The position numbers and the translations under genes were made by a program. A stretch of DNA of 64,000 nucleotides, taken from assembly GCA_017467905.1 (NCBI GenBank), contig JAFUKD010000024.1, positions 25,958-89,957 of the forward strand, read 5' to 3'. Positions 10,566 through 46,342 of the stretch are shown piece after piece. Below the pieces are notes generated by a model. The model had not been told where the DNA came from and ran no database searches. It saw nothing but the letters and a program-made list of their open reading frames with translations. Numbering within the stretch: the first letter of the stretch is position 1; each line of letters begins with the position of its first letter. This DNA comes from Phascolarctobacterium sp. Its GTDB lineage: Bacteria > Bacillota > Negativicutes > Acidaminococcales > Acidaminococcaceae.

Positions 10566-10626
10566 AAAAAACGCTCCGTTAGTTATGATACTTTTCTGTG
10601 TATCACCCTCATCTGAGCGTTTTTTC
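10566..10626 (-). repeat. Island-distal att-like unit L2 (candidate attL). Carries the 24-nt direct repeat of the rlmH 3' end inside an imperfect palindrome
   Basis: AACGCTCCGTTAGTTATGATACTT at 10570-10593 is identical to 45854-45877. Arms AACGCTC..ATGATAC / GTATCAC..GAGCGTT form a roughly 22-bp-arm inverted repeat flanked by A and T runs. Confidence 0.6.
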
Positions 10627-22094: not shown

Positions 22095-24731
22095 TTAGAA
22101 TTCACATTTCAAAGTTGCATAATAGGTTCGTCCTTGTACGGGATATTCAGGATTGATATAACTACCGTTAGCAAGTGCTATCTTTTGTTCCGGACCTTTG
22201 TTGAACACGTCGTTGCAGCCTACTGCCAGTTGCCAACCGTCTTTCATTTTCCACTTGATACCGGTGTTGAATACCAAGAGGTCATCAGTAGGCAAGCCAT
22301 CAGGGAACTCACCAACACCACCTTTTACACGATAGGTATAGTACGCATCGGTGTAGTGAGCTTCTGCAAAAATGTCAAGGTTGTTTTCAGGACGGTAAGT
22401 TAAACGCACGTTGCCTTCCCATTCAGGTTGGAAGGTAGGCCATGTATCTACATAATCATAAGAGCCATCTTTCTTACTCTTAGTTTTGATGTCGGTGTAG
22501 GTTGCTTGCAAATCAAGGTCAAACTTGCTCCAGTTAAAGTTAGTTTGTACTTCCACACCATGGGCCTTACCCTTGTTATCATTCATGTAAGACCAGTAAT
22601 CCTTACCAACACGTTGCAGTTGAAGCATATTTTCAGAATCACGCCAGAAGTAGGTTAAAGAGGTCTTGTTGTAACCGCCAAGGGTTTCGCCATGCCACAG
22701 TGCGCTGATGTCAAACTGCTTGCCTTCTTCGGGAACAGGGAAGGTGGATTCGCGACCATCATCAGTAGGAGCGGGCAGGATGCCTGCGCCGTCACCTGCG
22801 ATTTCGTACATGTTCAGCAAGCGGTAGTAAGTACCACCAGTCATACGCATGGTAAAGTTGTTGTCAAATTCTTTTTTAAGTGCTAATTGCCAAGTGAACT
22901 TGTCGTCAGTTTGTTCATCTTCCGGTGTAATCCAACCAAAAAGCTTATCGTTACCCGCTGTAAAGGTTGCTTTGTTACTGTAGCCGGTTATGGTAGAACG
23001 GTTATATTTAACGCTGGGTGTCAAGAACCAAGAGGACTTATCATCCAAGGTAATGGTGTCTTGCAGTTGGATGTTAAGCATTTCCTGTTCGTACTTATCA
23101 CGAATTTGTCCAAAGATAGTGTCGATGTTGTTATCGGTAATTTCCCTATCAGACATGCCGGAACCATCAACATCCATGTTTTCGCGAGAGAAGTTGATTT
23201 GGAAATCAAGCATATTATTGTCGCTAATCTTGTAAGTACCGTCAATTTGAGCATTGTACTTATCAGATTTATATTCGCTGAATTCACGTAAGGGTACAAG
23301 TTTATCTTGTTCGGTAGGATTGTTTATATTTTCAGCACGATAGCTTTTATCGGACTTGGTGTAGTCAAGCATCCAGCCCCATTCAAGCTTGCCCACGTTG
23401 TTGCGGTTTTGGAGCAAAAGTTCCTTGGTATCAATCTTTTGACGACGGCTATCGTAGGGATAGTTATCGTACAAATCTACACCCCAACCCACATTAGCAT
23501 TTGCAAAGGAATCACCATACAAGCTATCCGGCAAATGGCGGTCTACCTTGTTCCAAGCAGCCTTAACCATCCAGTTTTCATTTTGCCATTTCAAAATGCT
23601 GTTGATGTTTTCGTAATCGTTGTACTGACGCCAACGTTTGGGATTTTGTGCTTGGGCAAGTTTCTTACGGTTGTCCTCTATAGACTGATTTTCTGCACTC
23701 AGTACGTCGTTAGTACTAGGATTCAAGTTTGTTGCAATTTTGTTTGCTTCACCTTGGAGGGCAGTTGCTTTATCATTATCATTCATAGCCTCCCATTGTG
23801 TTTGGTTATACCCCATATGATACAACTGCTCATAAGTTAAAAGACTTTGGGATAATTTTTGGTAATAAGCCTTTTTAAAACCATCATCAGATTGGATATA
23901 AGCATCCCAAGCTGCTTCGCCTATTTTGCCATCAAAAGAAAATTCTTCAAATGTGTCCCCCAAATTTAAAGTATCCTTATAGTTATTAAAGCTATCTGTT
24001 TTAAAAGTATTTATGGTTTTAAGGCTTTCATTAATCTGGTTATTTATGGCAGTAATCGCGCCCGCTGTAGTATAGTTTTCATAACTAAAGTCGCCATCAC
24101 TGCTTTCATAGTTCCAGCCAAACATCAAGCTGCCATCACCTAAAGGTGCAGTAATTTCTGTGGCACCCTTCTTGCCACCATAGCTGCTCTTACCCAGCTC
24201 TACGCTTACATTGGTTTTATCAGGCTTCTTGGTAACGATGTTGATAACGCCACCAATAAAGGTGCCTGCAAAACGAGCAGGAATGTAGCCACGGTAAACT
24301 TCAATGCGTTCCACGTTGGCTACGGGGATGGTAGAAAGGTCTACCGCGCTGTCGCCGCCAAGGTTACTAAGCACGCCGTCAATGAACACGCCAACCTGTG
24401 CCGCAGTGGAGCCACGCACGGTTACTGTGGTGTATTGTCCTTTACCGTTTACTTCGCGTACATGTACGCCTGGTACCTTGCGCATTAAATCAGGCAAAGT
24501 TTTTTGTTCGCCCTTGTAATCATCAGGGCGAATAACGGTTACGCTACCGGGGGAAAGTTTTGTTTCCCAGTCGGGACGTGCCGCTTCTACGGTAATGCCT
24601 TCCAAATCAAAGGCAAGTTCTGCCCTTGTGGCAGCTTCTTCCGCAAAGGCATCACTTGCGCCAAAAATGCAGCAGCCCAGTACGAAAGCCATAGCCAATG
24701 TTAAGTTTTTGTTGTTCTTATGTTTTTTCAT
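22095..24731 (-). CDS. TonB-dependent outer-membrane receptor (BtuB-like context, unusually long)
   Basis: Signal peptide, then a plug domain (ITVEAARP...VHVREVNGKGQYTTVTVRGSTAAQVGVFIDGV...ERIEVYRG) and a barrel ending YYATLKCEF. Start set at MKKHKNNK, 9 nt after GGAG. Lies downstream of the putative cobalamin riboswitch. Confidence 0.8.
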   Translation of the reverse strand: MKKHKNNKNLTLAMAFVLGCCIFGASDAFAEEAATRAELAFDLEGITVEAARPDWETKLSPGSVTVIRPDDYKGEQKTLPDLMRKVPGVHVREVNGKGQYTTVTVRGSTAAQVGVFIDGVLSNLGGDSAVDLSTIPVANVERIEVYRGYIPARFAGTFIGGVINIVTKKPDKTNVSVELGKSSYGGKKGATEITAPLGDGSLMFGWNYESSDGDFSYENYTTAGAITAINNQINESLKTINTFKTDSFNNYKDTLNLGDTFEEFSFDGKIGEAAWDAYIQSDDGFKKAYYQKLSQSLLTYEQLYHMGYNQTQWEAMNDNDKATALQGEANKIATNLNPSTNDVLSAENQSIEDNRKKLAQAQNPKRWRQYNDYENINSILKWQNENWMVKAAWNKVDRHLPDSLYGDSFANANVGWGVDLYDNYPYDSRRQKIDTKELLLQNRNNVGKLEWGWMLDYTKSDKSYRAENINNPTEQDKLVPLREFSEYKSDKYNAQIDGTYKISDNNMLDFQINFSRENMDVDGSGMSDREITDNNIDTIFGQIRDKYEQEMLNIQLQDTITLDDKSSWFLTPSVKYNRSTITGYSNKATFTAGNDKLFGWITPEDEQTDDKFTWQLALKKEFDNNFTMRMTGGTYYRLLNMYEIAGDGAGILPAPTDDGRESTFPVPEEGKQFDISALWHGETLGGYNKTSLTYFWRDSENMLQLQRVGKDYWSYMNDNKGKAHGVEVQTNFNWSKFDLDLQATYTDIKTKSKKDGSYDYVDTWPTFQPEWEGNVRLTYRPENNLDIFAEAHYTDAYYTYRVKGGVGEFPDGLPTDDLLVFNTGIKWKMKDGWQLAVGCNDVFNKGPEQKIALANGSYINPEYPVQGRTYYATLKCEF

Positions 24732-24798
24732 AGACAACATCTCCAATCAATCATTCATACATAATTTGGGATTACTAAATAAAAAAAGAACCTTCCAA

Positions 24799-29796: not shown

Positions 29797-30216
29797 TTAA
29801 AATGGTTCTTTCATATCCATATCGTTATCTTCTTCAGTAGTTACGTAACTATCAAACTGATTACTGTTGCGTAGATAGAAAACCATAGAATAAGAATCGT
29901 TATAAACAACTATGATTTTTGTCCATTTTTCATTATCAAAATAGTAGTTGTAGGCTACCTCTGGTATAATACCTTCCCAACCTTCAGATAACCCAATGCT
30001 TTTTAATTGGTCGATAGTTTCGCTACCATCCAGCAATGCAACATAGCCATAATCATAATCATCCGTATGAAATTCTGTAAAACTGACTTCATTGTATTCG
30101 TCTGACCAGCTTTTAATTCTGGATAATTCTTCCTTCAGCATTTTTATGATACGATTAGGAACAATACCCATCATTGTAAGCTTGATAATATCCTTGTAGC
30201 ATTTTACTTCTATCAT
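29797..30216 (-). CDS. Hypothetical protein
   Basis: 139-aa ORF. Its start overlaps the upstream stop codon (ATGA) and an AAGGAGG RBS lies inside the upstream gene. Confidence 0.45.
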   Translation of the reverse strand: MIEVKCYKDIIKLTMMGIVPNRIIKMLKEELSRIKSWSDEYNEVSFTEFHTDDYDYGYVALLDGSETIDQLKSIGLSEGWEGIIPEVAYNYYFDNEKWTKIIVVYNDSYSMVFYLRNSNQFDSYVTTEEDNDMDMKEPF

Positions 30217-30935
30217 GCTGCCTCCTTGTTAGCCATTCGTTTTTGACAATCATAGCAAATGGGTTTACCGAATTTGTTTAAAGCATAGTCCAGTACTTTT
30301 TGAGACTTAATTGGTGTATTGCATTGGCAGCATATAGTACCAAATGGTGGCTCGTGGATTTCGGGTGCCTTAGGAGTGTCTACATTAGGTTCATAGTTTC
30401 TGGTCTTGGAAGCTATACTGAATCTTTCCTTACCATCTTTGTCTAGGACTACAAACTTGGTGAATTTATTTTGTGTCTTGTCATAGGTCATATCAGCACC
30501 GACATAGAATTTAGCATAGCTTTTAGGTTTGCCATTATTGCCTATGAAAAATTCGTCATCGTTAAGCTTGAATCTAATATCAGGAGCAGAATAAAGCTCT
30601 CTGCCGATCTTCCAATTAAAGCAAGCACGCTTGAAAGCATCGGAAGCTTCCCCTTTAGTAGGTTCAGTATTACTTGGTACTCCTACATCTTGTTTGGAGA
30701 TCCATTCCTGTTTTTTCTCATCATAGACACTTACTGTACAGAACAGTCTGCCATCTATCACGGTATGTTCTCGTTTCCAGTTCATAGAGCCAAAGCATTC
30801 GTCAAGGATACGCATATCCACTCTGGAATTCTTATATGCAAGCAGTACTGCAAAAGTTCCTTGGTTTGTTTGTTGGAGCTGTGCAATCCGCAATTCCACA
30901 TCAGAAGCAGTTAATAAAGGTATATCTTTTTCCAT
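30213..30935 (-). CDS. Rad52/Sak-like single-strand annealing protein with a C-terminal zinc ribbon
   Basis: ILDECFGSMNWKREH...KQDVGVPSNTEPTKGEASDAFKRACFNWKIGRELYSAP matches the Rad52_Rad22/DUF1071 core. The C-terminus has CCQCN...CYDC. Confidence 0.7.
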   Translation of the reverse strand: MEKDIPLLTASDVELRIAQLQQTNQGTFAVLLAYKNSRVDMRILDECFGSMNWKREHTVIDGRLFCTVSVYDEKKQEWISKQDVGVPSNTEPTKGEASDAFKRACFNWKIGRELYSAPDIRFKLNDDEFFIGNNGKPKSYAKFYVGADMTYDKTQNKFTKFVVLDKDGKERFSIASKTRNYEPNVDTPKAPEIHEPPFGTICCQCNTPIKSQKVLDYALNKFGKPICYDCQKRMANKEAA

Positions 30936-31017
30936 ATTTAGTTCCTTTCTAAACTTAGGTAAAAAATAATAGGCTACCGATTATAGCAGCCTATGAGTAG
31001 TGAGTTGTTGTTCATTT

Positions 31018-31218
31018 TTAAGCAGCTTTTGAAAGCTCTTCTTCAGTAAGTTCCTTGGTTACTATTGATAACTTGGTGGAGTTGTTGCTGAAGGTAATGG
31101 ATACTCCATTGGTAGAAGCAATGTGCTTACTATCATATTTGTCTTGGAATACTACGGCAACTTCATCATTATCATTAAGGATTGAGAGAGCCTGCAGGAT
31201 TTGTTTCTTGGTCATCAT
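31018..31218 (-). CDS. Hypothetical small protein
   Basis: 66-aa ORF lying in the operon. Confidence 0.35.
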   Translation of the reverse strand: MMTKKQILQALSILNDNDEVAVVFQDKYDSKHIASTNGVSITFSNNSTKLSIVTKELTEEELSKAA

Positions 31219-31249
31219 ATCTATTTACCACCTATGGTTCATTTTGTTA

Positions 31250-31537
31250 TTAGTTCTTGCGTACAATCATATGACGAAGGATATCCTCATTGATTTTCAT
31301 ATATCGGTCAATTTCCCTGGTTACATCACAAGTGCCAATGTAAGTGAAAAGTAAATAGATGCCAGTGTTCAGACCACAGATTTCATAAGCAAGTCGTTTT
31401 TCGCCCCAGTTGTCTACTTTATCGACCTTACCATCAGCAGTGATGATGGACTTGGTTTTATCAATGATTGCATTGAGGTTTTCTTCAGGCATAGGTTTTA
31501 TAATAATCATAATTTCATAGTTATTCATTATCTTCAC
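31250..31537 (-). CDS. Ribosomal protein bS6 (RpsF) paralogue encoded on the island
   Basis: 95 aa. YEIMIIIKP...NWGEKRLAYEI...GIYLLF...REIDRYMKINEDILRHMIVRK matches the bS6 hallmark blocks YE.M.I.RP / WGKRRLAYEI / G.Y / FDR..KI.DDI.RH.VV. Confidence 0.7.
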   Translation of the reverse strand: MKIMNNYEIMIIIKPMPEENLNAIIDKTKSIITADGKVDKVDNWGEKRLAYEICGLNTGIYLLFTYIGTCDVTREIDRYMKINEDILRHMIVRKN

Positions 31538-31545
31538 CTTTCTTT

Positions 31546-32454
31546 TTAAGCAGCGTTGGTTAAGCTATCTTGATTTGATAGTTGTTCTGTGTAGTCTTGT
31601 CTGCAAGCTTCATATACATTGCAGTAGTCCTGACATTTTCTTCCACTCCAGGATTCTCGCTTACTACAGAAGTCAGGTAATACACCACTAGCCATAGCTT
31701 CTTCAAGTCTACGCTTCTTGATGGCAAAATAGCGTTTGATCCAAATGTCGCTTATTTTATTGACCTTGATAAGATAGATTGGTTTCTCGACATTTCGTTC
31801 TGCAGCGATCCTCAAAGAATAGTCACGCACATACATCTGGATATGCATATCGTCTACCTTGAAGTTATGCTCCTCAAGCAGCATTCTGTAAGCATTGATT
31901 TGAATAGCCCATTCGAGGATATGCTTAACTCCTCCAGTCTTGAAAACTTTACGAGTCTTTGGTTGACCTTTCTTAGCACCAGTCTTATAGACTTCGCCAG
32001 TAGGTTCGTCTACCTTATAGTAGCCAAGAGCCATAGCTGCTTTGAATGAAGAAGTAACCTTATAGTCGAGCAGTATCTTCTTACCATTACCTAATAAGTC
32101 ACCATAGGCATCTATCTGTCCAGTATAGGTATCGTTAGATAGCCTTACTTCGGTCAAGGTAAATGATGAAGAATGCTTCTCGCATATGGAATGAACAGCA
32201 GTACCATGCATAGCAAATATTTGGTCTTGCGGGTCAATGGCATAATCAGTAGTTTTCTTGAGGTAAACCTCTCTAGTGCCTGATATGAGTTCAGTAACGG
32301 AATACTTACTACCCAAGCCTCTGTCCTTAACGCTGTTAGCAACTGCTTCAAGGGTAGGCTTACCCATACAACGCATTGCATTAGGACAAGCACTTAGGCA
32401 TTCAGATATTCCTATGCGTTCTTTGCTAGGACAAATGAATTGAGTAGCTCCCAT
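31546..32454 (-). CDS. PD-(D/E)XK RecB/Cas4-family exonuclease with a Fe-S cluster cysteine signature
   Basis: Motifs IDAYGD...ILLDYKVTSS (D...D.K) and QINAYRMLL (QxxxY). There are N-terminal Cys residues plus the C-terminal CSKRESWSGRKCQDYCNVYEAC. Confidence 0.65.
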   Translation of the reverse strand: MGATQFICPSKERIGISECLSACPNAMRCMGKPTLEAVANSVKDRGLGSKYSVTELISGTREVYLKKTTDYAIDPQDQIFAMHGTAVHSICEKHSSSFTLTEVRLSNDTYTGQIDAYGDLLGNGKKILLDYKVTSSFKAAMALGYYKVDEPTGEVYKTGAKKGQPKTRKVFKTGGVKHILEWAIQINAYRMLLEEHNFKVDDMHIQMYVRDYSLRIAAERNVEKPIYLIKVNKISDIWIKRYFAIKKRRLEEAMASGVLPDFCSKRESWSGRKCQDYCNVYEACRQDYTEQLSNQDSLTNAA

Positions 32455-32456
32455 TT

Positions 32457-33098
32457 TTAAGCGACCTCCTTCTTAGCCATAAATTCAGCCATTTCGTTGT
32501 GGTACTCCTTAAATCTATGAATGTAGAAATAATATTCTTTGTCCAAAGAACCATAGATTTGGTCAATGCTACGCTCGATATCGTCTAAGGTATCGAAATA
32601 ACCAAAGTAAGCTTTAGGAAAGCTAGTTCTAAGATAGGTAAATAAAGCCTTATATGTCTTGAAGTATTCAGATTCGGAAACACCATTAATTCGCCATTCA
32701 ACTTTATAGCGGTCAGGATAGAATACTCCAGTATCGTCTTTAACAATGAAGATATCGCCACCATCTTCGGAACAGAAGCTAAGATGGATTTCGTTATGGT
32801 ACTTTTCTTTCAAAAGGTTAATGATGGGAAGCATATTTTCGCTCCAAGCGGTGGTTGTTTCGCAACTGAAATAATGCACACCTCTCTTGCTGGTGATGAA
32901 CTCCTCACAATGGCTAAAATGATCGGTATTGTTCACACCCAACGGAAGCAAATAGCCATGGGATTTGAGAAGATCCCTAACGAGATTTTTACCCTTTACT
33001 GCATCGTCATAGCAGCTAAGGACTTTCTTATGCAGTTCTCTAAGCAGCTTACTGTTACGAGAACTAAAGGTAATGGAATTGACAGCGTAATTACACAT
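32457..33098 (-). CDS. Hypothetical protein
   Basis: Start set at MCNYAVNSITF after an AAGGAGG RBS. 213 aa with no firm family call. Confidence 0.45.
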   Translation of the reverse strand: MCNYAVNSITFSSRNSKLLRELHKKVLSCYDDAVKGKNLVRDLLKSHGYLLPLGVNNTDHFSHCEEFITSKRGVHYFSCETTTAWSENMLPIINLLKEKYHNEIHLSFCSEDGGDIFIVKDDTGVFYPDRYKVEWRINGVSESEYFKTYKALFTYLRTSFPKAYFGYFDTLDDIERSIDQIYGSLDKEYYFYIHRFKEYHNEMAEFMAKKEVA

Positions 33099-33202
33099 AG
33101 TAACTACCTCCTTGAAAAATAGAAAATAAAAAGAACCTTCCATCCAAATCTAGACAGAAGGTTCCATAACCACTGTTTTTGCAAAAAAACACTTGGTTCG
33201 TG

Positions 33203-37708: not shown

Positions 37709-39220
37709 TTAAGCTACTGCTTCAGCATTAGCTTCGTCTGTTTTTCCAAATTTAATATAACGAACCCCATTGCTCTTGTTACTAGAATCAACATTTATGG
37801 AGTAACCCATCCCACGAAAAGCTGGCATCAGCGTTTTAAGCTTATTACTCAGTTCTTGTGAACTACTCACCCATTTTTCGCTGTTCATATTGATATGATT
37901 GGTTCGAGCGATTTCCATCAGCTTTTTGTAAAGTTCTGTAGAATTCACCTTGCAGGGGAATTTGTTTAGAGACTCTAAATAAAGCATTAATGCATATGCT
38001 AACGGGTCTTGTTGTACCAGGTCTTCGAATACGAAGCCCTTGTTTCTCAAAAAAATTTCGATAAATTCTTTGTCACTACCAAATACAATAGTGGCTATGG
38101 CTCTACCCCAGGTAAAGAAGTCAATCAAGCGAGGAGATTCTACGTACTCCAAGTCGTCGTATATTTGCATCGCTTGACTAAGCACAGAAAAAATTTGTCC
38201 TAATATATAGGGTAGCTTTTCGTCAAACTCTTTTTCAATAGCCTTGGCTGAAACATACTTTTTGTTCAGCGTGGGCAATTCAAATCCTACAATGCGGTCA
38301 CGAAGATCCAGGCGTGCATTTTCAATGGCGATGCCATTAAGTAACACGCAGTTCTTGAAGCTAACTACGCTTGCATCAAAATTAGAATACTTGGTGCGTT
38401 TTAGCATACTACCACCAGTTGAAGCTTGGCAGAGCAAATCACTTACGCCTTTAGGTAAGTCAGTAATATTGTCTACCGCCATAACGTAGTGAGTTGAAAG
38501 AGCTACGCCAAGGTCTTCTTTGGTATCTGGAGAATTTAGAGTTTCATGGGTAACAGGATCTACAATTTTCTGTATGAGAGAGGTAAGGAAGGTCTTACCA
38601 GAACCCTGCTCACCTTGCAACAAAATTACTGCTTTAGGAATGTCTTGAATAAACCAAGCAACCAAGCATACCGTTAGCAGCTTCTTAGAATCATCATCCA
38701 TGTTAAGGAACGGAGAAAGCAGGTCATACAGGTTATGTCCCTTCTTTATTTTGGGCATTACCTGTTCTCCCATCAAGCTATTGCTCATAAATGCACAAGC
38801 TTTTTGGGATACCTCGATTTCATCTTCGAAATAAGTATCTTCAGCAGTTACTACTACATACTGACGAGCTTCATTGTTTAAATTGTAGACAATCTCGTCT
38901 CCAACCTTAGCAATTCTGCTGTAGATGGTTTTCTTGTTCTTGCTAGTAAGTGCATGGGCAAGAACATAATCAACGATTCTCTTGATAAATTTGTTTTCGT
39001 ATAGTTTATCTTCTACTGCTATGCACTCCATCAAGATTCTGTACTTGAAGATTTCGCTCTTAATGGCATCAGTGCGCACTTCATTGTTTCTGTCCATCCA
39101 GGTTATGTATTCTAAACCGGTGTTAGTTCCAACGAATAGTTCACTGCCGTCAATAATAGCTTTCACAGTATTGAAAATCTCTTCTAGTACTTCTTCGGCT
39201 TTACCAGTTTTTTTAGCCAT
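37709..39220 (-). CDS. P-loop NTPase, SF3/VirE-like helicase candidate (the intact member of the paralogue family)
   Basis: 503 aa. Walker A is LLQGEQGSGKTF, Walker-B-like is YVMAVDNITDL and a motif-C-like segment is FKNCVLLNGIA. It shares N- and C-terminal blocks with the three following ORFs. Confidence 0.55.
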   Translation of the reverse strand: MAKKTGKAEEVLEEIFNTVKAIIDGSELFVGTNTGLEYITWMDRNNEVRTDAIKSEIFKYRILMECIAVEDKLYENKFIKRIVDYVLAHALTSKNKKTIYSRIAKVGDEIVYNLNNEARQYVVVTAEDTYFEDEIEVSQKACAFMSNSLMGEQVMPKIKKGHNLYDLLSPFLNMDDDSKKLLTVCLVAWFIQDIPKAVILLQGEQGSGKTFLTSLIQKIVDPVTHETLNSPDTKEDLGVALSTHYVMAVDNITDLPKGVSDLLCQASTGGSMLKRTKYSNFDASVVSFKNCVLLNGIAIENARLDLRDRIVGFELPTLNKKYVSAKAIEKEFDEKLPYILGQIFSVLSQAMQIYDDLEYVESPRLIDFFTWGRAIATIVFGSDKEFIEIFLRNKGFVFEDLVQQDPLAYALMLYLESLNKFPCKVNSTELYKKLMEIARTNHINMNSEKWVSSSQELSNKLKTLMPAFRGMGYSINVDSSNKSNGVRYIKFGKTDEANAEAVA

Positions 39221-39244
39221 GTTTTTCCTCCTTTCTTTATTCTG

Positions 39245-39269
39245 GCAGGCGGAGCAGAGCCCCGCCCGC
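39245..39269 (-). promoter_or_regulatory. Intercistronic GC-rich hairpin H2
   Basis: Minus strand reads GCGGGCGGGGC TCT GCTCCGCCTGC, with two G-U pairs only in minus-strand RNA. Confidence 0.5.
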
Positions 39270-39293
39270 TATTTAAATTATTAAGCAACCACT

Positions 39294-40526
39294 TCAAGCA
39301 ACATTGGTTCTAGAGCTTTGTCCAGAAACAATTACCCTACTAGGAATCGTGGTCATAACATTATTACCTTTAACACCTTTTTTCAGAGCATATGCTTTTA
39401 AAAAGGTGTGGTCGTCACCAAAAAGTACTTTGGAGATGGCTCTACCCAAATGAATGTACTCGGCAAGCTCACCGTAGTCCTCACTAAAACCAACAGTTTC
39501 TTTAATATATAAAGCCTTGCGTAAAACCTCAAAAATTTTATACAACAGGTATGGCTTAATAGCATTAAGTTCAGCCTTTACATCTTCCAGAACATTAGTG
39601 GTATAGTCGAAGCCCAGATTAGGGTTAACAGAAATCAACATATCAGCAAAGCCAACGCCGAGATCATCATGTTCTATACAACTAATGCTATAAGCGTTAG
39701 ACAGGTCATTGTTCAAGTAATAGTAATCTTCTAAAACTGCCAGTTCTGTACATGCTTCGATGTTTTTGAGATCTTTTACTGTGTGACCACATTGGAAGTA
39801 TCTTTCACTACAAGCTTGGTCATCATCCATATCAGCAAAGGACGGCAAATACAAGCAGTCTTCCTTCAACGGGTCAATCAGAGATTGTAATGCAAAGTTA
39901 AATGCTTGCTTTACATCGTCTCTATCGCTATCGATATATAGAATAGGTTTTCGGATGCAAGGTGCAAACATAGTAATTATGGTAACTGCCAAAGCGACTG
40001 CGTCAACGTAGTTAAGATGTAGCAATCTTTGCAATGCATCAACCAAATCTATTTCGTCATCAGGTACCGGCAATACTTGTGGTGCAGCATAAGGACTATT
40101 GCAAAAAGCAATATCTTTATCTGCCAACGCTTCCATAGGAATGATTTTTGCTTCGCAATCATCGGAGCCATCAATAAGAGCCATAACGTTTTTACCATCG
40201 AAGTTGTAATAAATAACGCCTTCAGAAACGGCAATACGAGAAACTACAGTCTTTTCTTCATGATGAGCTTCAATATATTTAGCAAAAGCATTTACAGCAG
40301 TAGCCAAATACTTAGGATTTTCTTTCATCAGTCTTTCGTTGGTAGTAACAATCCAATTCTTGACTGCAACACTGTCGTAGGCTACGGTTACCAGATTATC
40401 GCTACCATCTTTAAATGTCATGTAATAGTTACCACTATTTTTAGCAACAATTCCTTTAAAGTCAGAAACTTTAAGAGTAATGGTCTTAACTTCTCGTTGT
40501 TCAATTTTCAAAGTTTGTTCATTCAT
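39294..40526 (-). CDS. Paralogue of the P-loop protein with a degenerate Walker A (pseudo-NTPase)
   Basis: 410 aa. Shared blocks are SRIAVSEGVIYYNF, QVLPVPDDEIDLVDAL, FAPCIRKPILYI, LIDPLK and KPYLLYKIFEVLRKAL. The Walker A position reads DSDRDDVK. Confidence 0.55.
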   Translation of the reverse strand: MNEQTLKIEQREVKTITLKVSDFKGIVAKNSGNYYMTFKDGSDNLVTVAYDSVAVKNWIVTTNERLMKENPKYLATAVNAFAKYIEAHHEEKTVVSRIAVSEGVIYYNFDGKNVMALIDGSDDCEAKIIPMEALADKDIAFCNSPYAAPQVLPVPDDEIDLVDALQRLLHLNYVDAVALAVTIITMFAPCIRKPILYIDSDRDDVKQAFNFALQSLIDPLKEDCLYLPSFADMDDDQACSERYFQCGHTVKDLKNIEACTELAVLEDYYYLNNDLSNAYSISCIEHDDLGVGFADMLISVNPNLGFDYTTNVLEDVKAELNAIKPYLLYKIFEVLRKALYIKETVGFSEDYGELAEYIHLGRAISKVLFGDDHTFLKAYALKKGVKGNNVMTTIPSRVIVSGQSSRTNVA

Positions 40527-40551
40527 ATTGTTTTCTTCCTTTCCTTATTAA

Positions 40552-40578
40552 GCAGAGTGGAGGCGAACCCCACCCTGC
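40552..40578 (-). promoter_or_regulatory. Intercistronic GC-rich hairpin H3
   Basis: Minus strand reads GCAGGGTGGGG TTCG CCTCCACTCTGC. Confidence 0.45.
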
Positions 40579-40586
40579 ATTTTTTA

Positions 40587-41816
40587 TTACGCAACACTAT
40601 ATAGGGCTTTTAATTCAAGACTATCAGCCATATCAAAGATTTCGTCTAATTCCGCGCTCTCCACCTTATGGTCATAGAAATCCATGAAAAGCATAACCGG
40701 AATCAATTCATCCGCCAAAGGCTTGCGCAATGCAAATACTTTGTCGAAAGCTTCAGCTTTACCAAAGATGACAGCCGCAATCGCTCTAGCCCATTGGACG
40801 AATTCAGTAAGGTCACCAAAGTCCTCTACCGCTATTGTTTCTTTTACCACCATCGCCTTGCTTAGAACCTCAAAGATTGCATTCAAGATATCTGGTCGTT
40901 CTTTTTCTACAACTTTTTTAGCTTCAGCCAATGGTTCGTAGTTGCCAATCAGTTTAGATTTGATGGTAACAACAATTGAAGCTAGCTTAGCAGTTACTGA
41001 ATCCAAGCCTATATCATTCACCACGAAGCAGTTGCGCAAGTTGCCCATATCAGAACCACAAGGTGTCAAGTTTTCTACATTCATGTCGAATACATCTTTA
41101 ACATCTTTGAATGTATTAGCAACGTGCAAGTAACGTTTGGCAAAAGCCCATTCTTCGCTTCTATCATGAGAATAACAGAACTCTTCTTCTTTGATTGGAT
41201 CAACGAGAGCTTGAAGCACGTAATTACATACTGCCTTGGCACCATCGTCCTTGCAAGTTATGTTTAAAACAGGCTTGAAGATTTGGGGAACGAACATCGC
41301 TACCAAAACAATCGCCATCAAAATGCTATCAAGTCGGTCTAAGCCTAACAAATAGCCAATTTTCTCAGGCAAATCTACTTTATTACCTTGCTTGGGTAAA
41401 TCCTGGACATCCATTAATCGGTCATTAACAAAAGCAAAAAGCTCATTTCTTAAGCTACCTGCTTCAACCAGACTAGTACGACCAGGTTCGACAACCAAAA
41501 CGTTGCCATCCATAAAGTTGTAGAAAATCTTGTCACCTTCTTGAGCAATACGAGACATAACGTCTTTTCCCATACCCTCATAACCAGCAACATCTGCCAA
41601 CTTATGCAATGCGCATCTTACAAGTTCAGGATTTTGTGCAACAAGTTGCGGGTTCTTTTCTTCCATCCAAGCTACAAAACGGTCGTCATAAAGAGGGATA
41701 TTAATGAAGCCCTCTTTTTCATTCTCGTAACTAATGCAATATTCGCCGATGTTGCAGCCGATGAACAATTTAGCATCGGCAGGAACATTTGCAATAACAG
41801 AATCTACTTTTTTCAT
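40587..41816 (-). CDS. Paralogue of the P-loop protein with a degenerate Walker A (pseudo-NTPase)
   Basis: 409 aa. Shared blocks are SRIAQEGDKIFYNF, FVPQIFKPVLNI, LVDPIK and RPDILNAIFEVLSKAM. The Walker A position reads TCKDDGAK. Confidence 0.55.
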   Translation of the reverse strand: MKKVDSVIANVPADAKLFIGCNIGEYCISYENEKEGFINIPLYDDRFVAWMEEKNPQLVAQNPELVRCALHKLADVAGYEGMGKDVMSRIAQEGDKIFYNFMDGNVLVVEPGRTSLVEAGSLRNELFAFVNDRLMDVQDLPKQGNKVDLPEKIGYLLGLDRLDSILMAIVLVAMFVPQIFKPVLNITCKDDGAKAVCNYVLQALVDPIKEEEFCYSHDRSEEWAFAKRYLHVANTFKDVKDVFDMNVENLTPCGSDMGNLRNCFVVNDIGLDSVTAKLASIVVTIKSKLIGNYEPLAEAKKVVEKERPDILNAIFEVLSKAMVVKETIAVEDFGDLTEFVQWARAIAAVIFGKAEAFDKVFALRKPLADELIPVMLFMDFYDHKVESAELDEIFDMADSLELKALYSVA

Positions 41817-41847
41817 ATTTCTCCTCCTACTAATTTAGAAATTTAGT

Positions 41848-41890
41848 GGCTTTATGGGAGGTAGAGACCATGCTCTACCTCATAAAAGCC
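41848..41890 (-). promoter_or_regulatory. Intercistronic long hairpin H4
   Basis: GGCTTTATGGGAGGTAGAG ACCATG CTCTACCTCATAAAAGCC, a stem of about 18 bp with bulges. Confidence 0.45.
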
Positions 41891-41904
41891 GTTATACATT
41901 ATTA

Positions 41905-42549
41905 TTAAGCTGCTGCTTTCTTGATTCTATCAGCAAGGTACATACCAAACTCCCAAGCTTCGCTTATAGGAGTCTGTTCAGGATCAAAACTGTTCCAGTC
42001 AAGGCAAAGTTTGCCGTCTTTTTCTTTCAAGCGAATAGTACCGAATGCATCAGCAATTTCGTCGGTGTAAGCAGCGACGAGTGTTTCCCATCCGCCTGCA
42101 TAAACGCTTCGAATCATTTCAAGATATTCTTCAGAGCCAATTTTGTAATCTTCTACGAGTAAGCCAGTTGGACGATCATCGTACCAGTAAGAACCATCTT
42201 CAGTAGCTTCAAACAACAATACTACCAATTGAACTCTGTCGGCAATTAACGCCACCGGACCAATAGTGAAGCCATACCAAACATCAGCTTTCAAGTTTGA
42301 CGGCATATAGTAATCAACGAAACCCACAAACTGAGAGGGGTTCTTTTTATGCCAATCCCAGAAATAGGAGTCCTTGGCTCTAAAAACGGAGCCACAGGAT
42401 TCGGTTTCAACAGCTTCAGCGTTACCTTCAGCAATAGCCTCAACGCTTGCGATTTTAGTTGTTTCTTCAAATGGTTTGGTTTCGATGCCACTGATTGCAT
42501 TGTTACCTTCAGTGACGATTTTAATCAAAATTTCTTTGTTTTCTTTCAT
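41905..42549 (-). CDS. Hypothetical protein embedded in the paralogue array
   Basis: 214-aa ORF with an AGGAGG RBS. No motif recognised. Confidence 0.45.
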   Translation of the reverse strand: MKENKEILIKIVTEGNNAISGIETKPFEETTKIASVEAIAEGNAEAVETESCGSVFRAKDSYFWDWHKKNPSQFVGFVDYYMPSNLKADVWYGFTIGPVALIADRVQLVVLLFEATEDGSYWYDDRPTGLLVEDYKIGSEEYLEMIRSVYAGGWETLVAAYTDEIADAFGTIRLKEKDGKLCLDWNSFDPEQTPISEAWEFGMYLADRIKKAAA

Positions 42550-42586
42550 TATTTGTTACCTCCTGATTGTTTCGAATTTTAATTGA

Positions 42587-42622
42587 AGTTGGTGCTGGAA
42601 CTGAGTAAGCACCAGCACCACT
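42587..42622 (-). promoter_or_regulatory. Intercistronic hairpin H5
   Basis: AGTTGGTGCTGG ...loop... CCAGCACCACT. Confidence 0.45.
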
Positions 42623-42634
42623 TAGTACATTTAG

Positions 42635-43819
42635 TTAAGCAATCTTAGTATTAAGAAGCTTTTCACGTTTAGTAGCGATTAGCTCAAGGTAATTTGCCTT
42701 CCAAGCATTAACATCGCGACCAAACGGTTTGCGTTCTACATATGCATTTGTAAAAACGTCCTTACTACCAAACAGAACAAAGGATATTGCTGTTGCCCAT
42801 TGCATGAAGTCAGTAAGCACACCTGCATATTCTACCTCTATGCTGTCTTTAATCGCCATCGCTTCGCTCAAAACAGTAAAGATCGCTTGCAGAATGTATG
42901 GGCGGTCTTCTTCAAATGAAGCAATCGCTTCAGCCAATTCTTCACGATTACTAAGTTCAACTTTCGGGCTAACTGTGAGCACCTTCGCTAACAAGTCAAT
43001 ATCGAAGTTCTTCATGGCTAAGTCAAAGGTAACCATAGCATTGCGCATATTACCCATGTCGCCACCATTCAGACCTTCATTTCCCAAGTTGTGCCAGAGT
43101 AACCAATTTAGGTCTTTAATATTGTAGCCAAAGTGCAAATAACGTTTCGCCAACACAGCATGGTCGCTTTCAGCGTTAAAGTACAGTTCTTCACCTTTTA
43201 CAGGATCAACTACGTATTCAAGTACGTATTTTGCCCAAGCAAGGGTATCTACGCTTTCACTATTGACGTAAAGCACCGGCTTAACGATATGGGGTACGAA
43301 TGCTGCAACCAACCAAGTGGACAAAAGCACTGTATCTTCAATGCTCAAGCCAAAAAGCTCACCAACTTTGTCAACAAGGTCGATTTGCTTTTCGCTTCTT
43401 GGTAAAACTTGATTGCCCATATGTTTTGATTTTACAAATGCAAAGCCTTCATCGAATAAGTCTTGCATGTCAATCACGCTGAGCTTATTAGGTTCAACAA
43501 CTGCTACGTTGGTATTATCCAAGTTGTAAAAGATTTTGCTGTCTTCATACATTCGGGATACAACGTATTTTGCATCGGCATTATCCATCCAGCCTTGAAT
43601 GAATGCTTCAACAACTTCGTCAGCCTCTTCGTCTTCGTAAAGAGAAGGATTGCTTCTTTTAATGGCATTAGCCAAATCAACCTCATCAATTGAGCCAACT
43701 TCGTAAATGCCGTCAGCATTAACGCAACTAGCATAATAAAATCCAGTATTGTAACCAGCGAATACATCGCAATAATCAGGAACGGTAATGGATTCGATTT
43801 TTTCGTTTAAATTAGTCAT
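42635..43819 (-). CDS. Paralogue of the P-loop protein with a degenerate Walker A (pseudo-NTPase), first gene of the array
   Basis: 394 aa. Shared blocks are SRMYEDSKIFYNL, QVLPRSEKQIDLVDKV, FVPHIVKPVLYV, VVDPVK and RPYILQAIFTVLSEAM. The Walker A position reads NSESVDTL. Confidence 0.55.
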   Translation of the reverse strand: MTNLNEKIESITVPDYCDVFAGYNTGFYYASCVNADGIYEVGSIDEVDLANAIKRSNPSLYEDEEADEVVEAFIQGWMDNADAKYVVSRMYEDSKIFYNLDNTNVAVVEPNKLSVIDMQDLFDEGFAFVKSKHMGNQVLPRSEKQIDLVDKVGELFGLSIEDTVLLSTWLVAAFVPHIVKPVLYVNSESVDTLAWAKYVLEYVVDPVKGEELYFNAESDHAVLAKRYLHFGYNIKDLNWLLWHNLGNEGLNGGDMGNMRNAMVTFDLAMKNFDIDLLAKVLTVSPKVELSNREELAEAIASFEEDRPYILQAIFTVLSEAMAIKDSIEVEYAGVLTDFMQWATAISFVLFGSKDVFTNAYVERKPFGRDVNAWKANYLELIATKREKLLNTKIA

Positions 43820-43859
43820 TTAAAATTCCTCCTACTATGTAATGTGTCTTGCAACACCT

Positions 43860-44265
43860 GACAATAAAAAGGAACCTTCACCTTTGCTCAAAAGCTATTG
43901 AAGATGGCATTACAGCCCACATAGCTTCCAAGCATCGGCTTGGTCTACTGTATTCCAATTGTCAAGGTTCAAGTGGTTTTTAACTGCTTCACAGGGATTA
44001 CCCTTGCGTTCTTAGGAGGCATTCCTCGCAGCCAACTCACAATTCGTGCTCGTTCACTTGAAGATTGCCACCCTCGAAGCGTGGGGTAAGGTTTTGCGGT
44101 ACGCACTTTAAGGCACAACTTTTTTCCCTGTGGGGTTCAACGTTGTGCCCTCCCCATTGGCGCTGCAGCCGCTACAAAAGGCTGCTCAACGAGGAGGTGT
44201 CTACCGCTGGCGCTAGCAAAGTAAGAAGCGGCTAGCGCCACATCTTTTGCAAGCTTAGGAACTTT
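43860..44265. ncRNA. Candidate large structured RNA or structured DNA site (class unknown)
   Basis: No ORF of 60 aa or more in any frame between 43820 and 44556. G+C is locally elevated: 36/60 counted in line 44161, against 23/60 in coding line 43741. Many perfect nested stems are present: GAACCTT/AAGGTTC, AGCTAT/ATAGCT, CCAAGC/GCTTGG, GGCACAAC/GTTGTGCC, GCAGCC/GGCTGC and GGCGCTAGC/GCTAGCGCC. Confidence 0.35.
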
Positions 44266-44270
44266 CGTTC

Positions 44271-44460
44271 ATTGTAACAAATTGTAAAACAAGTCCGCGG
44301 TACCTGTTCTTCAATCGTCTCTTGTATGATATCACCGTAACTGTATTGTGTCAATGGATTTTCGTCCACTATTAGAGTACAAGTTTTTGCAAAAAAAAGG
44401 GCTCTTTTTCTGTACCTTAATTTCGAGAATTGTGTAACATTTCTTCGAAAAATTGTAAAC
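44271..44460. repeat. Iteron-like ATTGTAA(A/C) repeats in the AT-rich segment next to the structured region
   Basis: ATTGTAACAA at 44271 and ATTGTAAAAC at 44281 are 10 bp apart. AATTGTGTAAC is at 44428 and AATTGTAAAC at 44451. Confidence 0.3.
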
Positions 44461-44556: not shown

Positions 44557-45600
44557 TTAATCCTGTCCTGCCAGCTTTTTTAAAAGGTTTGCAACCCTAA
44601 CCATTCCCGACTTAATATCTTCAAAATCTTTCTGTTTTTGGTGTTCCAGTTCATCAAGTATATCATCAAGTGAATCCCCTACTTGAAAAGCTTCATCTGC
44701 TTCGATGATAGACTCTATCCTTTTAATGTAGAAATTGATAAGCCTTAAATTCTCCATTGACTTTCTATTATATCTTTTGCAAACCGGATCATTATCCGAA
44801 GCTAAAATAGAATGGTAAGTTATGTATGTGCTTAACCTATTTCCAATACCATTGTACCTTGCAACAATTTCCTCTTGTAAAGTTTTTACATCTATGGCAT
44901 TACCGACTATTTGGTCTAAATCCTCCTTCAAATTCTCCCTTGCAATTTGCTCAATAGCAGCCCTATTATTCACTATATAATTATGGCAACATTCAATACG
45001 CTTCCAATACGGCACTTCCTTATTACCAGCCAGAATCACTTCAGATTCTTCAGACAAATATATTAACACCTTTCTAAGAAACAAGGCATGGAGTTCTTGA
45101 TCCTCAGATAATACCTTCTTCTTATATTCTTTTATATTTTTACTTTTTCTTTCATCTGCTACCTGTGCATAATGCTTAAGATATTTATATTCCTCATCAT
45201 CACAAAAAACCTTGTCCAAAAGATATACAAAGCCTGGTAAAAACTTATTGGATATAGCCATTCTCATATTGTCGTCTAATTCAAGATTTTTAACAACATC
45301 CGCATATTCTTCAAATATCTGTTTAGCATCATCGCTTGAACAGAAGTCTTTTATAAGTTCCAAAGCTGTCATTGTTCTAGGACCAGACCAATATAGCATA
45401 TCTAAAACCCTAGCCAATCTTTCTTTTATAAACCGATAATTCGGATGCCACTCTAAATTACCATGAGCATTTACATATTTTTTAAAGTAAAAATAATAAA
45501 TATCTTTTATGGACATACCATCATGTTTACGCTTATCACTTAAATATTTTATTGCCTCTTCTATTTCATCAGGAGAAAACCAAATTCTAATATTTGACAT
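44557..45600 (-). CDS. Hypothetical all-helical protein, first gene inside the island next to rlmH
   Basis: 347-aa ORF, AT-rich, with no recognisable motif. Confidence 0.5.
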   Translation of the reverse strand: MSNIRIWFSPDEIEEAIKYLSDKRKHDGMSIKDIYYFYFKKYVNAHGNLEWHPNYRFIKERLARVLDMLYWSGPRTMTALELIKDFCSSDDAKQIFEEYADVVKNLELDDNMRMAISNKFLPGFVYLLDKVFCDDEEYKYLKHYAQVADERKSKNIKEYKKKVLSEDQELHALFLRKVLIYLSEESEVILAGNKEVPYWKRIECCHNYIVNNRAAIEQIARENLKEDLDQIVGNAIDVKTLQEEIVARYNGIGNRLSTYITYHSILASDNDPVCKRYNRKSMENLRLINFYIKRIESIIEADEAFQVGDSLDDILDELEHQKQKDFEDIKSGMVRVANLLKKLAGQD

Positions 45601-45853: not shown

Positions 45854-45880
45854 AACGCTCCGTTAGTTATGATACTTCTG
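45854..45880 (-). repeat. rlmH-proximal direct repeat (candidate attR)
   Basis: AACGCTCCGTTAGTTATGATACTT is identical to 10570-10593. It covers the rlmH stop codon (45863-45865) and its last four codons. Confidence 0.65.
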
Positions 45881-46342
45881 ACCGCTACTAATCTTAAATG
45901 CTCTGTAAATCTGCTCAATCAAAAGCAGTCTAATCATTTGATGAGTAAAGGTCATTTTAGAAAAGCTCAAGGCAAAATCTGCACGCTTGCGCAAAGCATC
46001 CGTATAACCAAAGGCACCGCCAATGACAAAAGTTATATGACTATGTCCGCTGAGAGCAAGATTATCAATCTTACTTGCCAGCTCCGGTGAAGATAACTGC
46101 TTGCCAATTACGTCCAGTAAAATCACATAGGAATTTTCCGGAATAATCGCTAGAAGCCTATTAGTTTCCTTCGCCAGTACTTGCTCCTTTTCTGCAGGCG
46201 CAGGGTTATCAGGCATTTTTTCTTCATTGATGGCTACGGTCTCCAATTTACAGAAAGGAGTAAGCCTTTTGGTAAATTCGTCAATACCAGCAGTCAGGTA
46301 TTTTTCTTTAATCTTTCCTACACACGCAATGGTTATCTTCAC
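45863..46342 (-). CDS. rlmH: 23S rRNA (pseudouridine1915-N3)-methyltransferase RlmH
   Basis: 159 aa, SPOUT family. Contains MKITIACVGKIKEKYL...LSSPELA...HITFVIGGAFG...LSFSKMTFTHQM.R..L.EQIYRAF. Confidence 0.9.
   Translation of the reverse strand: MKITIACVGKIKEKYLTAGIDEFTKRLTPFCKLETVAINEEKMPDNPAPAEKEQVLAKETNRLLAIIPENSYVILLDVIGKQLSSPELASKIDNLALSGHSHITFVIGGAFGYTDALRKRADFALSFSKMTFTHQMIRLLLIEQIYRAFKISSGQKYHN

Follow-up and report, generated by a model that had tools for sequence, protein, structure and literature searches.

The window analyzed here is a stretch of 64,000 nucleotides from a Phascolarctobacterium sp. contig (JAFUKD010000024.1, GenBank assembly GCA_017467905.1), and part of it is evidently a cassette like the staphylococcal cassette chromosome (SCC), inserted at the 3′ end of rlmH in a Phascolarctobacterium-type Negativicute. 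One operon of the cassette encodes an active-looking helicase, p503, together with three shorter paralogues, p394, p409 and p410, whose helicase motifs are degenerate, and an unrelated protein, p214. The main finding is that the dead copies appear to be functional genes under purifying selection, with a constraint somewhat weaker than that on the helicase. They would be unable to bind nucleotide, bind origin DNA or translocate, so they most likely act through protein contacts. We tentatively favor a role for them as accessory modulators, dominant-negative or gating, of cassette replication.

The five open reading frames (ORFs) described in the original prediction, p394, p214, p409, p410 and p503, were all found where it had placed them, co-directional on the minus strand in the ORF listing. 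The ribosome-binding sites it reported were also seen, an AGGAGG-type site lying 6-10 nt 5′ of the ATG in each of the five genes. Its claim that the four long proteins are true paralogues holds. In pairwise blastp, with E-values scaled to a database of 1e9 residues, p503 matched the three shorter copies at 1e-14 (p410) to 1e-22, and the shorter copies matched each other at 1e-27 to 2e-63, the best pair being p394 and p409. Homology spans nearly the entire length of the four proteins. A profile of the dead copies aligned to one of the active helicases by hhalign with a probability of 100% (E 6.8e-45, 353 columns). The three dead types have diverged from one another to 28-38% identity. The 214-residue protein encoded within the array had been called unrelated to the paralogues, and it gave no pairwise blastp match to any of the four.

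Only p503 keeps the catalytic motifs, as had been predicted: GEQGSGKT as Walker A and VMAVDN as Walker B. The sequences originally quoted for these motifs in p503 and in the other three copies were all found as written, the Walker A position of the three shorter copies reading NSESVDTL, TCKDDGAK and DSDRDDVK. LLNGI (sensor 1) and DLRDR (arginine finger) complete the set in p503, and all four motifs are conserved across its family. As in superfamily 3 (SF3) helicases, Walker A and Walker B come with a sensor-1 Asn, and some 14 residues beyond it there is an arginine; the motif spacing was compared with that of SV40 large T antigen. The Walker B acidic pair is D-N in the p503 family, whereas in SF3 helicases it is D-E or D-D.

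Structure prediction had been proposed for every paralogue; it was carried out with AlphaFold2 (AF2) on p503 and p409, and both are predicted to take a helicase fold. The p503 model (predicted local distance difference test score, pLDDT, 83.8; predicted template modeling score, pTM, 0.80) has an alpha/beta region and a beta-rich domain in its N-terminal part; its other parts are a P-loop core, a helical lid and, at the C-terminus, a winged helix. Its top Foldseek match in the PDB was the SCCmec helicase Cch (5DGK, E 4e-10, template modeling (TM) score 0.47), followed by African swine fever virus (ASFV) PrimPol, the primase-helicase of the Staphylococcus aureus pathogenicity island SaPI5, poxvirus D5/E5, NrS-1 helicase and PriRep1. 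The best fold matches of the p409 model (pLDDT 80.2) were likewise Cch (5DGK, E 1.4e-6) and D5, the match to Cch being without the winged helix. On these models p503 is the cassette's counterpart of Cch, with a predicted SF3/D5-like hexameric helicase fold. The suggestion that the array occupies the place of Cch in SCC elements is borne out by 5DGK being the best PDB match of p503 and by its position in an rlmH-integrated cassette with a ccrAB-like recombinase pair.

The dead copies have lost far more than the P-loop. Measured against the family consensus, p394, p409 and p410 lack the P-loop glycines and Ser/Thr, the Walker B D-N pair, the invariant DLxDR arginine (the R309 position), most of the SDLLCxAxTGG...KR hairpin segment, which is partly deleted, and the C-terminal winged-helix domain of about 85 residues. 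All four elements of the SF3 motif set (Walker A, Walker B, sensor-1 Asn and arginine finger) are degenerate. In the related Rep helicases the winged helix recognizes the origin, and a lysine of the hairpin is essential to unwinding, though hexamers form without it (PMC9371898). Read together with this literature, the motif and domain losses indicate that the dead copies are without every element for ATP use, origin reading and translocation. They retain the N-terminal beta domain, the overall core fold and the lid. Their net charge is -21 to -34, against -6 to -11 in close helicases, where the basic winged helix is present. Scans of the six operon proteins against Pfam, NCBIfam, PHROGs and PADLOC gave nothing significant besides generic P-loop and weak PHROG matches of p503. 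A defence-system label was considered and rejected, as none of the six had a relevant PADLOC match.

In a neighbor-joining tree all dead copies form one clade (100% bootstrap) outside the cassette-helicase clade. This topology, together with the shared losses, points to one inactivation event and then two duplications of a gene that was already dead, with long-branch effects possible.

The claim that the copies reflect selection rather than decay was examined through the ratio of nonsynonymous to synonymous substitution rates (dN/dS, or omega), computed by the Nei-Gojobori method between orthologues from different cassettes, among them 10 pairs of dead-copy orthologues. The ratio was 0.16 for p394 (against the related locus L005), 0.15-0.20 for p409 (six pairs) and 0.15-0.36 for p410, values that indicate purifying selection as claimed; it was 0.20-0.33 for p214 and 0.055-0.09 for p503. 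The dead ATPase core is itself constrained, with an omega of about 0.13-0.16 in p409 and p394 (that of p410 is not computable, as dS is saturated), and the individual domains of the dead copies gave 0.08-0.34 wherever a value could be computed. The pattern of conservation differs between the two kinds of protein: helicase orthologues are most alike in the ATPase core (86-94% identity), with the N-terminal domains evolving fastest, whereas p409 and p410 orthologues are most alike in the N-terminal beta domain (85-100%). The p394 protein is identical in 7 metagenome contigs from different samples, all with the same intact array of three dead copies and one helicase.

It is therefore extremely improbable that the copies are decaying, redundant helicase genes without current function, left by tandem cassette integrations at rlmH. 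SCC-type elements do integrate in tandem, and broken genes exist: a p409-type gene in L018 (1895-3118) is interrupted at codon 46 by an in-frame stop, and in L029 (9974-11523) the helicase is broken into three frames. These are examples of decay, with sequencing error possible in these metagenome assemblies. Besides the dN/dS values, however, the frames of the dead copies are intact in the window, L005-7, L008-11, L019-20 and L044-46, and shared losses followed by two duplications imply that the dead form was retained. The window has only two copies of the attachment site, with no remnant between the paralogues. Tandem-integration remnants were rejected as an explanation, since no extra attachment-site copies are present and selection is purifying.

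The genes p394, p214, p409, p410 and p503 evidently form a single operon, in which the dead copies would be co-transcribed with the helicase from one promoter. We conclude this because there is one strong promoter-like site, no good internal terminator and only short intergenic gaps. The site, a sigma-70-like sequence 5′ of p394, agrees with the consensus at 11/12 positions, better than any other in the 8.6 kb scanned. Within the operon no terminator-like site with a good stem was found.

One active and three inactive genes had been envisaged as a pattern that homologous loci might conserve, and a survey of related cassettes showed otherwise, with 0, 1, 2 or 3 dead copies present. The survey covered 46 related loci by gene calls, tblastn and hidden Markov model (HMM) searches of all ORFs; a genome scan with a narrower alignment gave 3 loci, and a metagenome scan gave 21 loci, none with dead copies. 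Three dead copies occur in the window, in L044/45 (helicase not compared with p503) and in L005-7 (helicase 81% identical to p503), and probably in L046, where the contig is cut and the helicase lies outside it. Two copies, of the p409 and p410 types, are found in L019/20 (helicase 94% identical), and a single p409-type copy is found in L008-11 (74%) and in L018 (84%), the latter being the gene with the stop codon. The p410 type is present in L005-7, L019-20 and L046. All cassettes with a more distant helicase, at 63% identity and below, carry none. Dead copies were always in the helicase operon, and none was seen in the 46 loci without an adjacent active helicase. In carriers that reach the chromosomal flank, the host RlmH and HtrA are 92-96% identical to those of the window (L018, L020 and L046 stop short of it), and the trait is apparently confined to cassettes of one host lineage.

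These results bear on the original proposal of a ring or loader in which one catalytic subunit works with three pseudo-NTPase subunits. If p503 and three pseudo-subunits formed an obligate hetero-oligomeric motor or loader, a mixed ring needed for helicase function, then their shared fold, co-transcription and the purifying selection on all copies would be expected, and mixed rings with non-catalytic AAA+ subunits do occur elsewhere, in clamp loaders and the origin recognition complex (ORC). We nevertheless consider such a motor very unlikely. With the trans-acting arginine lost, the interface between p503 and a dead copy could not make a complete ATP site, and both DNA-contacting elements, the channel hairpin and the winged helix, are gone from these strongly negative proteins. 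The presence of anywhere from 0 to 3 copies beside helicases 37-94% identical to p503 implies that the helicase works alone. Finally, p409 has been exchanged independently of the helicase, which argues against tight co-evolution in an obligate complex. We rank a modulator above an obligate mixed motor on three grounds: loss of the trans arginine, a variable stoichiometry and a helicase that evidently works alone in most cassettes.

As modulators, the dead copies could have arisen and could act as follows. A helicase copy would have been inactivated once, and its dead form would have been useful enough to be duplicated twice and kept. Transcribed together with the helicase from a single promoter that a long structured leader follows, the dead copies would dock onto the p503 ring, or co-assemble with it, through the helicase-fold surfaces they retain. 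In this way they would tune the assembly or activity of p503, so that replication of the excised cassette is braked or gated.

Several observations weigh against this proposal. The majority of related cassettes are without any dead copy, so the function must be dispensable. The p409 protein is 96.6% identical between the window and L008, while the helicases are 73.6% and the ccrA genes 64% identical; a tight partner might be expected to co-evolve, except if contact were made through the highly conserved ATPase body. The N-terminal beta domains of the dead copies share no more than 23-30% identity with that of p503, and mixed rings can therefore not be taken for granted. The alignment behind the p409 model included active helicases, which may have biased that model towards the helicase fold. 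Lastly, there is the interrupted p409-type gene of L018.

The dead copies could instead be decoys or poison subunits in a conflict, disabling the helicases of rival cassettes or satellites at rlmH or absorbing a host or phage factor that targets helicases. This is rather doubtful in our view, although much about the locus fits it. The array lies in a variable region by the attachment site where dead helicases and p214-like domains expand, fuse, recombine and sometimes break; the three divergent dead types are each conserved; the proteins are strongly acidic; the N-terminal domains of active helicases evolve fastest; and p409 is exchanged in a cassette-like manner. On the other side, PADLOC gave no match to defence or anti-defence families, pairwise dN/dS showed no positive selection, and the window, with two attachment-site copies only, shows no sign of a co-resident rival cassette. 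A wider version, also unlikely, would have the dead copies and the expanding p214-like family together as diversifying decoy or poison subunits that insert into or cap helicase rings. If that were true, ring-poisoning would throttle the cassette's own replication or knock out rival helicases competing for the single rlmH site, and it would represent helicase mimicry for copy-number control or inter-element exclusion, which is undescribed in cassette chromosomes.

The fold might also have been put to a new use apart from the helicase, as a scaffold for the control of excision or integration, for transfer, or for binding a host protein through the beta domain. The better conservation of the beta domain than of the ATPase core in p409 and p410 orthologues would fit such a use, as would an allele history independent of the helicase, and the role of the N-terminal domain is unknown even in characterized Rep helicases (PMC9371898). 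We still judge it improbable, given that an active helicase adjoins the dead copies throughout and that the whole fold, dead core and lid included, is under constraint.

Our preferred reading, that the dead copies modulate p503, has parallels in other systems. Non-catalytic paralogues sit beside active enzymes in the clamp loader (delta/delta′), among the ORC subunits and in herpesvirus UL8, and truncated or inactive proteins inhibit the enzymes of mobile elements, as with the Tn5 Inh protein. All share the concept of an inactivated paralogue that selection keeps beside the active enzyme and that works by protein contacts, either as a structural subunit or as a dominant-negative regulator. They differ from the present case in having a defined stoichiometry or a demonstrated interaction, whereas here the copies number 0-3, nor does any of them comprise dead helicase genes in tandem within a cassette chromosome. 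In the literature searched, tandem retained dead helicase paralogues are undescribed for SCC, SaPI or primase-helicase modules, and no module of one active and three inactive copies was found there, in agreement with the original prediction.

The comparison with staphylococcal replication modules shows how familiar the rest of the locus is. In pattern-1 SCCmec the MCM-like helicase Cch is encoded in the LP1413-Cch operon upstream of ccrAB, which includes a small accessory gene (PMC7581432), as does the operon of p503. Cch resembles p503 in its N-terminal domain, AAA+-type core and C-terminal winged helix, in lying directly upstream of a ccrAB pair and in belonging to a cassette at rlmH. The two have no detectable sequence similarity, however, and p503 has no DUF927 match and, even by profile, no PDB sequence match; moreover, the hosts of Cch are Staphylococcus, and that of p503 is a Negativicute. 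SCCmec operons as described have one helicase and no dead paralogues (PMC7581432), whereas here there are three. The Cch2 and SaPI5 PriRep/Rep structures (PDB 7OLA and 7PDS) resemble p503 with Foldseek TM scores of 0.46-0.54, and these self-loading initiator helicases too are encoded in a multi-gene replication operon 5′ of recombinase genes. Their winged helix reads the origin, and their beta-hairpin is needed for unwinding (PMC7581432, PMC9371898). In the CCPol-MP-Cch2 operon the accessory genes encode a polymerase and a small partner, not helicase paralogues like p394, p409 and p410. Unlike Cch2 and SaPI5 Rep, p503 has no Primase_Cterm or D5_N match in Pfam, and no convincing iteron array was found near p503, in the leader or across the element. 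D5/E5, ASFV PrimPol (C962R) and NrS-1 helicase are matches of p503 at the level of fold, with no sequence-level relationship. Unlike them p503 stands alone, without a primase, although their primase-helicase fusions are echoed in its family, where many members are primase-fused.

p503 itself is, by its motifs and matches, an active-looking member of a very large family of mobile-element helicases for which there is no Pfam model. Against Pfam, NCBIfam and PADLOC it had no family match beyond a generic P-loop; DUF927, D5_N and Primase_Cterm were all absent in the Pfam scan. PHROGs returned only weak matches to the C-terminal halves of 'DNA primase' families (E about 1e-3). Searches of PDB sequences with the single sequence and with the family profile, at E up to 10, gave only P-loop noise, so the link to Cch and D5 is at the fold level only. 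An exhaustive HMMER profile search, by contrast, found 21,973 cluster representatives (clustered at 50% identity) at E<=1e-3 and 11,481 at E<=1e-30. Word-indexed protein searches had returned 18, 5 and 20 relatives only, and the impression they gave of a rare family was rejected in light of the roughly 22,000 clusters. A family of this size is thus uncovered by Pfam, NCBIfam or PDB sequences. Many members are 750-950 aa long, and recognizable N-terminal extensions include DnaG-type, RepB-type and PrimPol/PriCT primase domains. In 60 members inspected, which were the first 60 identifiers of the combined results and in several cases came from earlier searches, the motifs G..G[SA].K[ST], hhhFDN, SDxLCxAxTG...R, LNGI and DLLDR are kept outside the p409 cluster; the exceptions are that cluster, two truncated sequences and scattered single substitutions.

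Taken together, this is an SCC-type cassette whose helicase has a Cch-like fold but lies outside the DUF927 and D5_N sequence families, and the dead copies are an unusual, lineage-restricted and dispensable add-on to a familiar replication module. SCC-type cassettes with a Cch-like self-loading helicase thus reach gut Negativicutes, far from the staphylococci. There they use a third helicase sequence family with the Cch fold, and their occurrence supports the view that post-excision replication is a general property of such cassettes. The tandem dead paralogues amount to a natural experiment in which a hexameric replicative helicase has been inactivated, retained and duplicated. If they regulate or poison the helicase, they would give a way to influence the copy number and transfer of the cassette and could be a template for designing helicase inhibitors. 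Because the trait is confined to one host lineage and dispensable, its general importance is limited unless dead copies recur elsewhere in the approximately 22,000-member family, of which the top 150 matches were covered here.

Table. Features of the cassette and its insertion site, in window coordinates.
Feature	Coordinates	Strand	Basis
p394, dead helicase paralogue	42635-43819	-	paralogy and motif loss
p214, acidic, unrelated to the paralogues	41905-42549	-	ORF embedded in the array
p409, dead helicase paralogue, most widespread type	40587-41816	-	paralogy, AF2 fold
p410, dead helicase paralogue	39294-40526	-	paralogy
p503, predicted active Cch/D5-like SF3-type self-loading helicase with C-terminal winged helix	37709-39220	-	AF2, Foldseek, motifs
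Acidic small ORF, 39 aa, ending DEAA	37469-37588	-	translation; between helicase and ccrA
ccrA-like large serine recombinase, 508 aa	35937-37463	-	Pfam Resolvase, Recombinase, Zn_ribbon_recom
ccrB-like large serine recombinase, 555 aa	34292-35959	-	Pfam Resolvase, Recombinase, Zn_ribbon_recom
Structured non-coding block, about 420 nt, candidate 5′ leader	43823-44239	-	conserved, 5′ of first operon gene
Sigma-70-like promoter, TTGACA, 17-nt spacer, (TG)TATCAT	44326-44354	-	consensus match only
p347, first cassette gene	44557-45600	-	no family match
Left attachment-site repeat, AAGTATCATAACTAACGGAGCGTT	45854-45877	-	overlaps last codons and stop of rlmH
Right attachment-site repeat	10570-10593	-	24-nt perfect repeat of rlmH 3′ end
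rlmH, SPOUT methyltransferase, integration target	45863-46342	-	Pfam PF02590, E 1e-56
Cargo: 2,910-aa autotransporter	13347-22079
Cargo: TonB-dependent receptor	22095-24746

The cassette measures 35.3 kb (10570-45877) and lies between 24-nt perfect direct repeats, with a lower G+C content that shifts near 10570. The left repeat is made of the final rlmH codons plus 9 nt and recurs perfectly at the right end; its core, TATCATAA, presumably resembles the staphylococcal SCC integration site. The ccrAB-like label rests on Pfam domains and adjacency; p503 ends 246 bp upstream of the ccrA-like start. The arrangement of rlmH, recombinase pair and helicase is found in more than 40 related loci, and rlmH flanks every related cassette. 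In addition to the two large genes of the table, the cargo includes OmpH, a small resolvase, a GTPase, a Fic toxin and a Rad52-like protein. The chromosomal flank (an HtrA-like protease, a metallo-beta-lactamase (MBL)-fold protein and DeoC) is syntenic with uncultured Phascolarctobacterium contigs at 67-85% protein identity. The Enterococcus cassette chromosome is reportedly another SCC-like element, integrated at rlmH by a ccrAB-type pair and carrying variable cargo. The window differs from it in its host, a diderm Negativicute that is distinct at phylum level, and in a cargo of autotransporter, TonB-dependent receptor and OmpH, and no report of an rlmH cassette in Negativicutes was found in the literature searched.

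The non-coding block 5′ of p394 is found only in cassettes carrying dead paralogues. It is 82-93% identical in nucleotide sequence to its counterparts in L005, L008 and L019, beside p214 genes that are only 41-49% identical in protein sequence in the same cassettes. Its RNA fold has a z-score of -4.9 against shuffled sequence, compensatory changes are seen in 8/115 consensus pairs, and the ribosome-binding site is paired within the last hairpin. Rfam gave no match across 33-47 kb of the window. The block may be a new cis-regulatory leader RNA, or else a structured DNA origin.

An ORF of 39-43 aa lies between helicase and ccrA in all related cassettes, and its product ends in AA or VA in 9/9 loci tabulated. 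The C-termini of p394, p214, p409, p410, p503 and this small ORF read KIA, AAA, SVA, NVA, AVA and EAA. All six operon products end in a hydrophobic residue plus Ala, while p347, ccrA and ccrB do not. By analogy, such ends may be ssrA-like C-terminal degrons that keep the proteins of the module unstable.

p214 appears to be a constant partner of the module and not a random insert. In related elements a p214-like gene is always directly upstream of the p409-type gene, and in L004, L005, L008, L018, L019, L021, L022 and L023 homologues precede either p409 or the helicase. The p214-like domain spans about 150 aa behind a variable acidic N-terminus, which has DEVDT repeats in L009, and no family was detectable in Pfam, NCBIfam, PHROGs or PADLOC. 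Some loci have two-domain fusions, one of them split by a frameshift. Cassettes whose helicase is about 62% identical to p503 have one to three p214-like domains and no dead helicase. The domain is itself amplified, with examples in the window (41905-42549), L004 (7948-9901), L021 (3031-4197) and L022 (6742-7907). The stretch from rlmH to the helicase thus appears to be a variable region in which two gene families, the dead helicases and the p214-like genes, expand and recombine. p347 is 78% identical in L005 and about 30% identical to a 296-aa homologue in L008 and L019.

A further block, 3′ of ccrB (29797-33143 in the window), is common to all related cassettes, with equivalents in L001, L004, L005, L008 and L019. 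It comprises ORFs of about 213, 302, about 100, 65, about 240 and about 140 aa. The 302-aa product bears a four-cysteine motif near its N-terminus and shows 74-79% identity between cassettes; that of about 100 aa matches the ribosomal S6 Pfam model, and that of about 240 aa is Rad52-like. The block may be a recombination or single-strand-DNA module.

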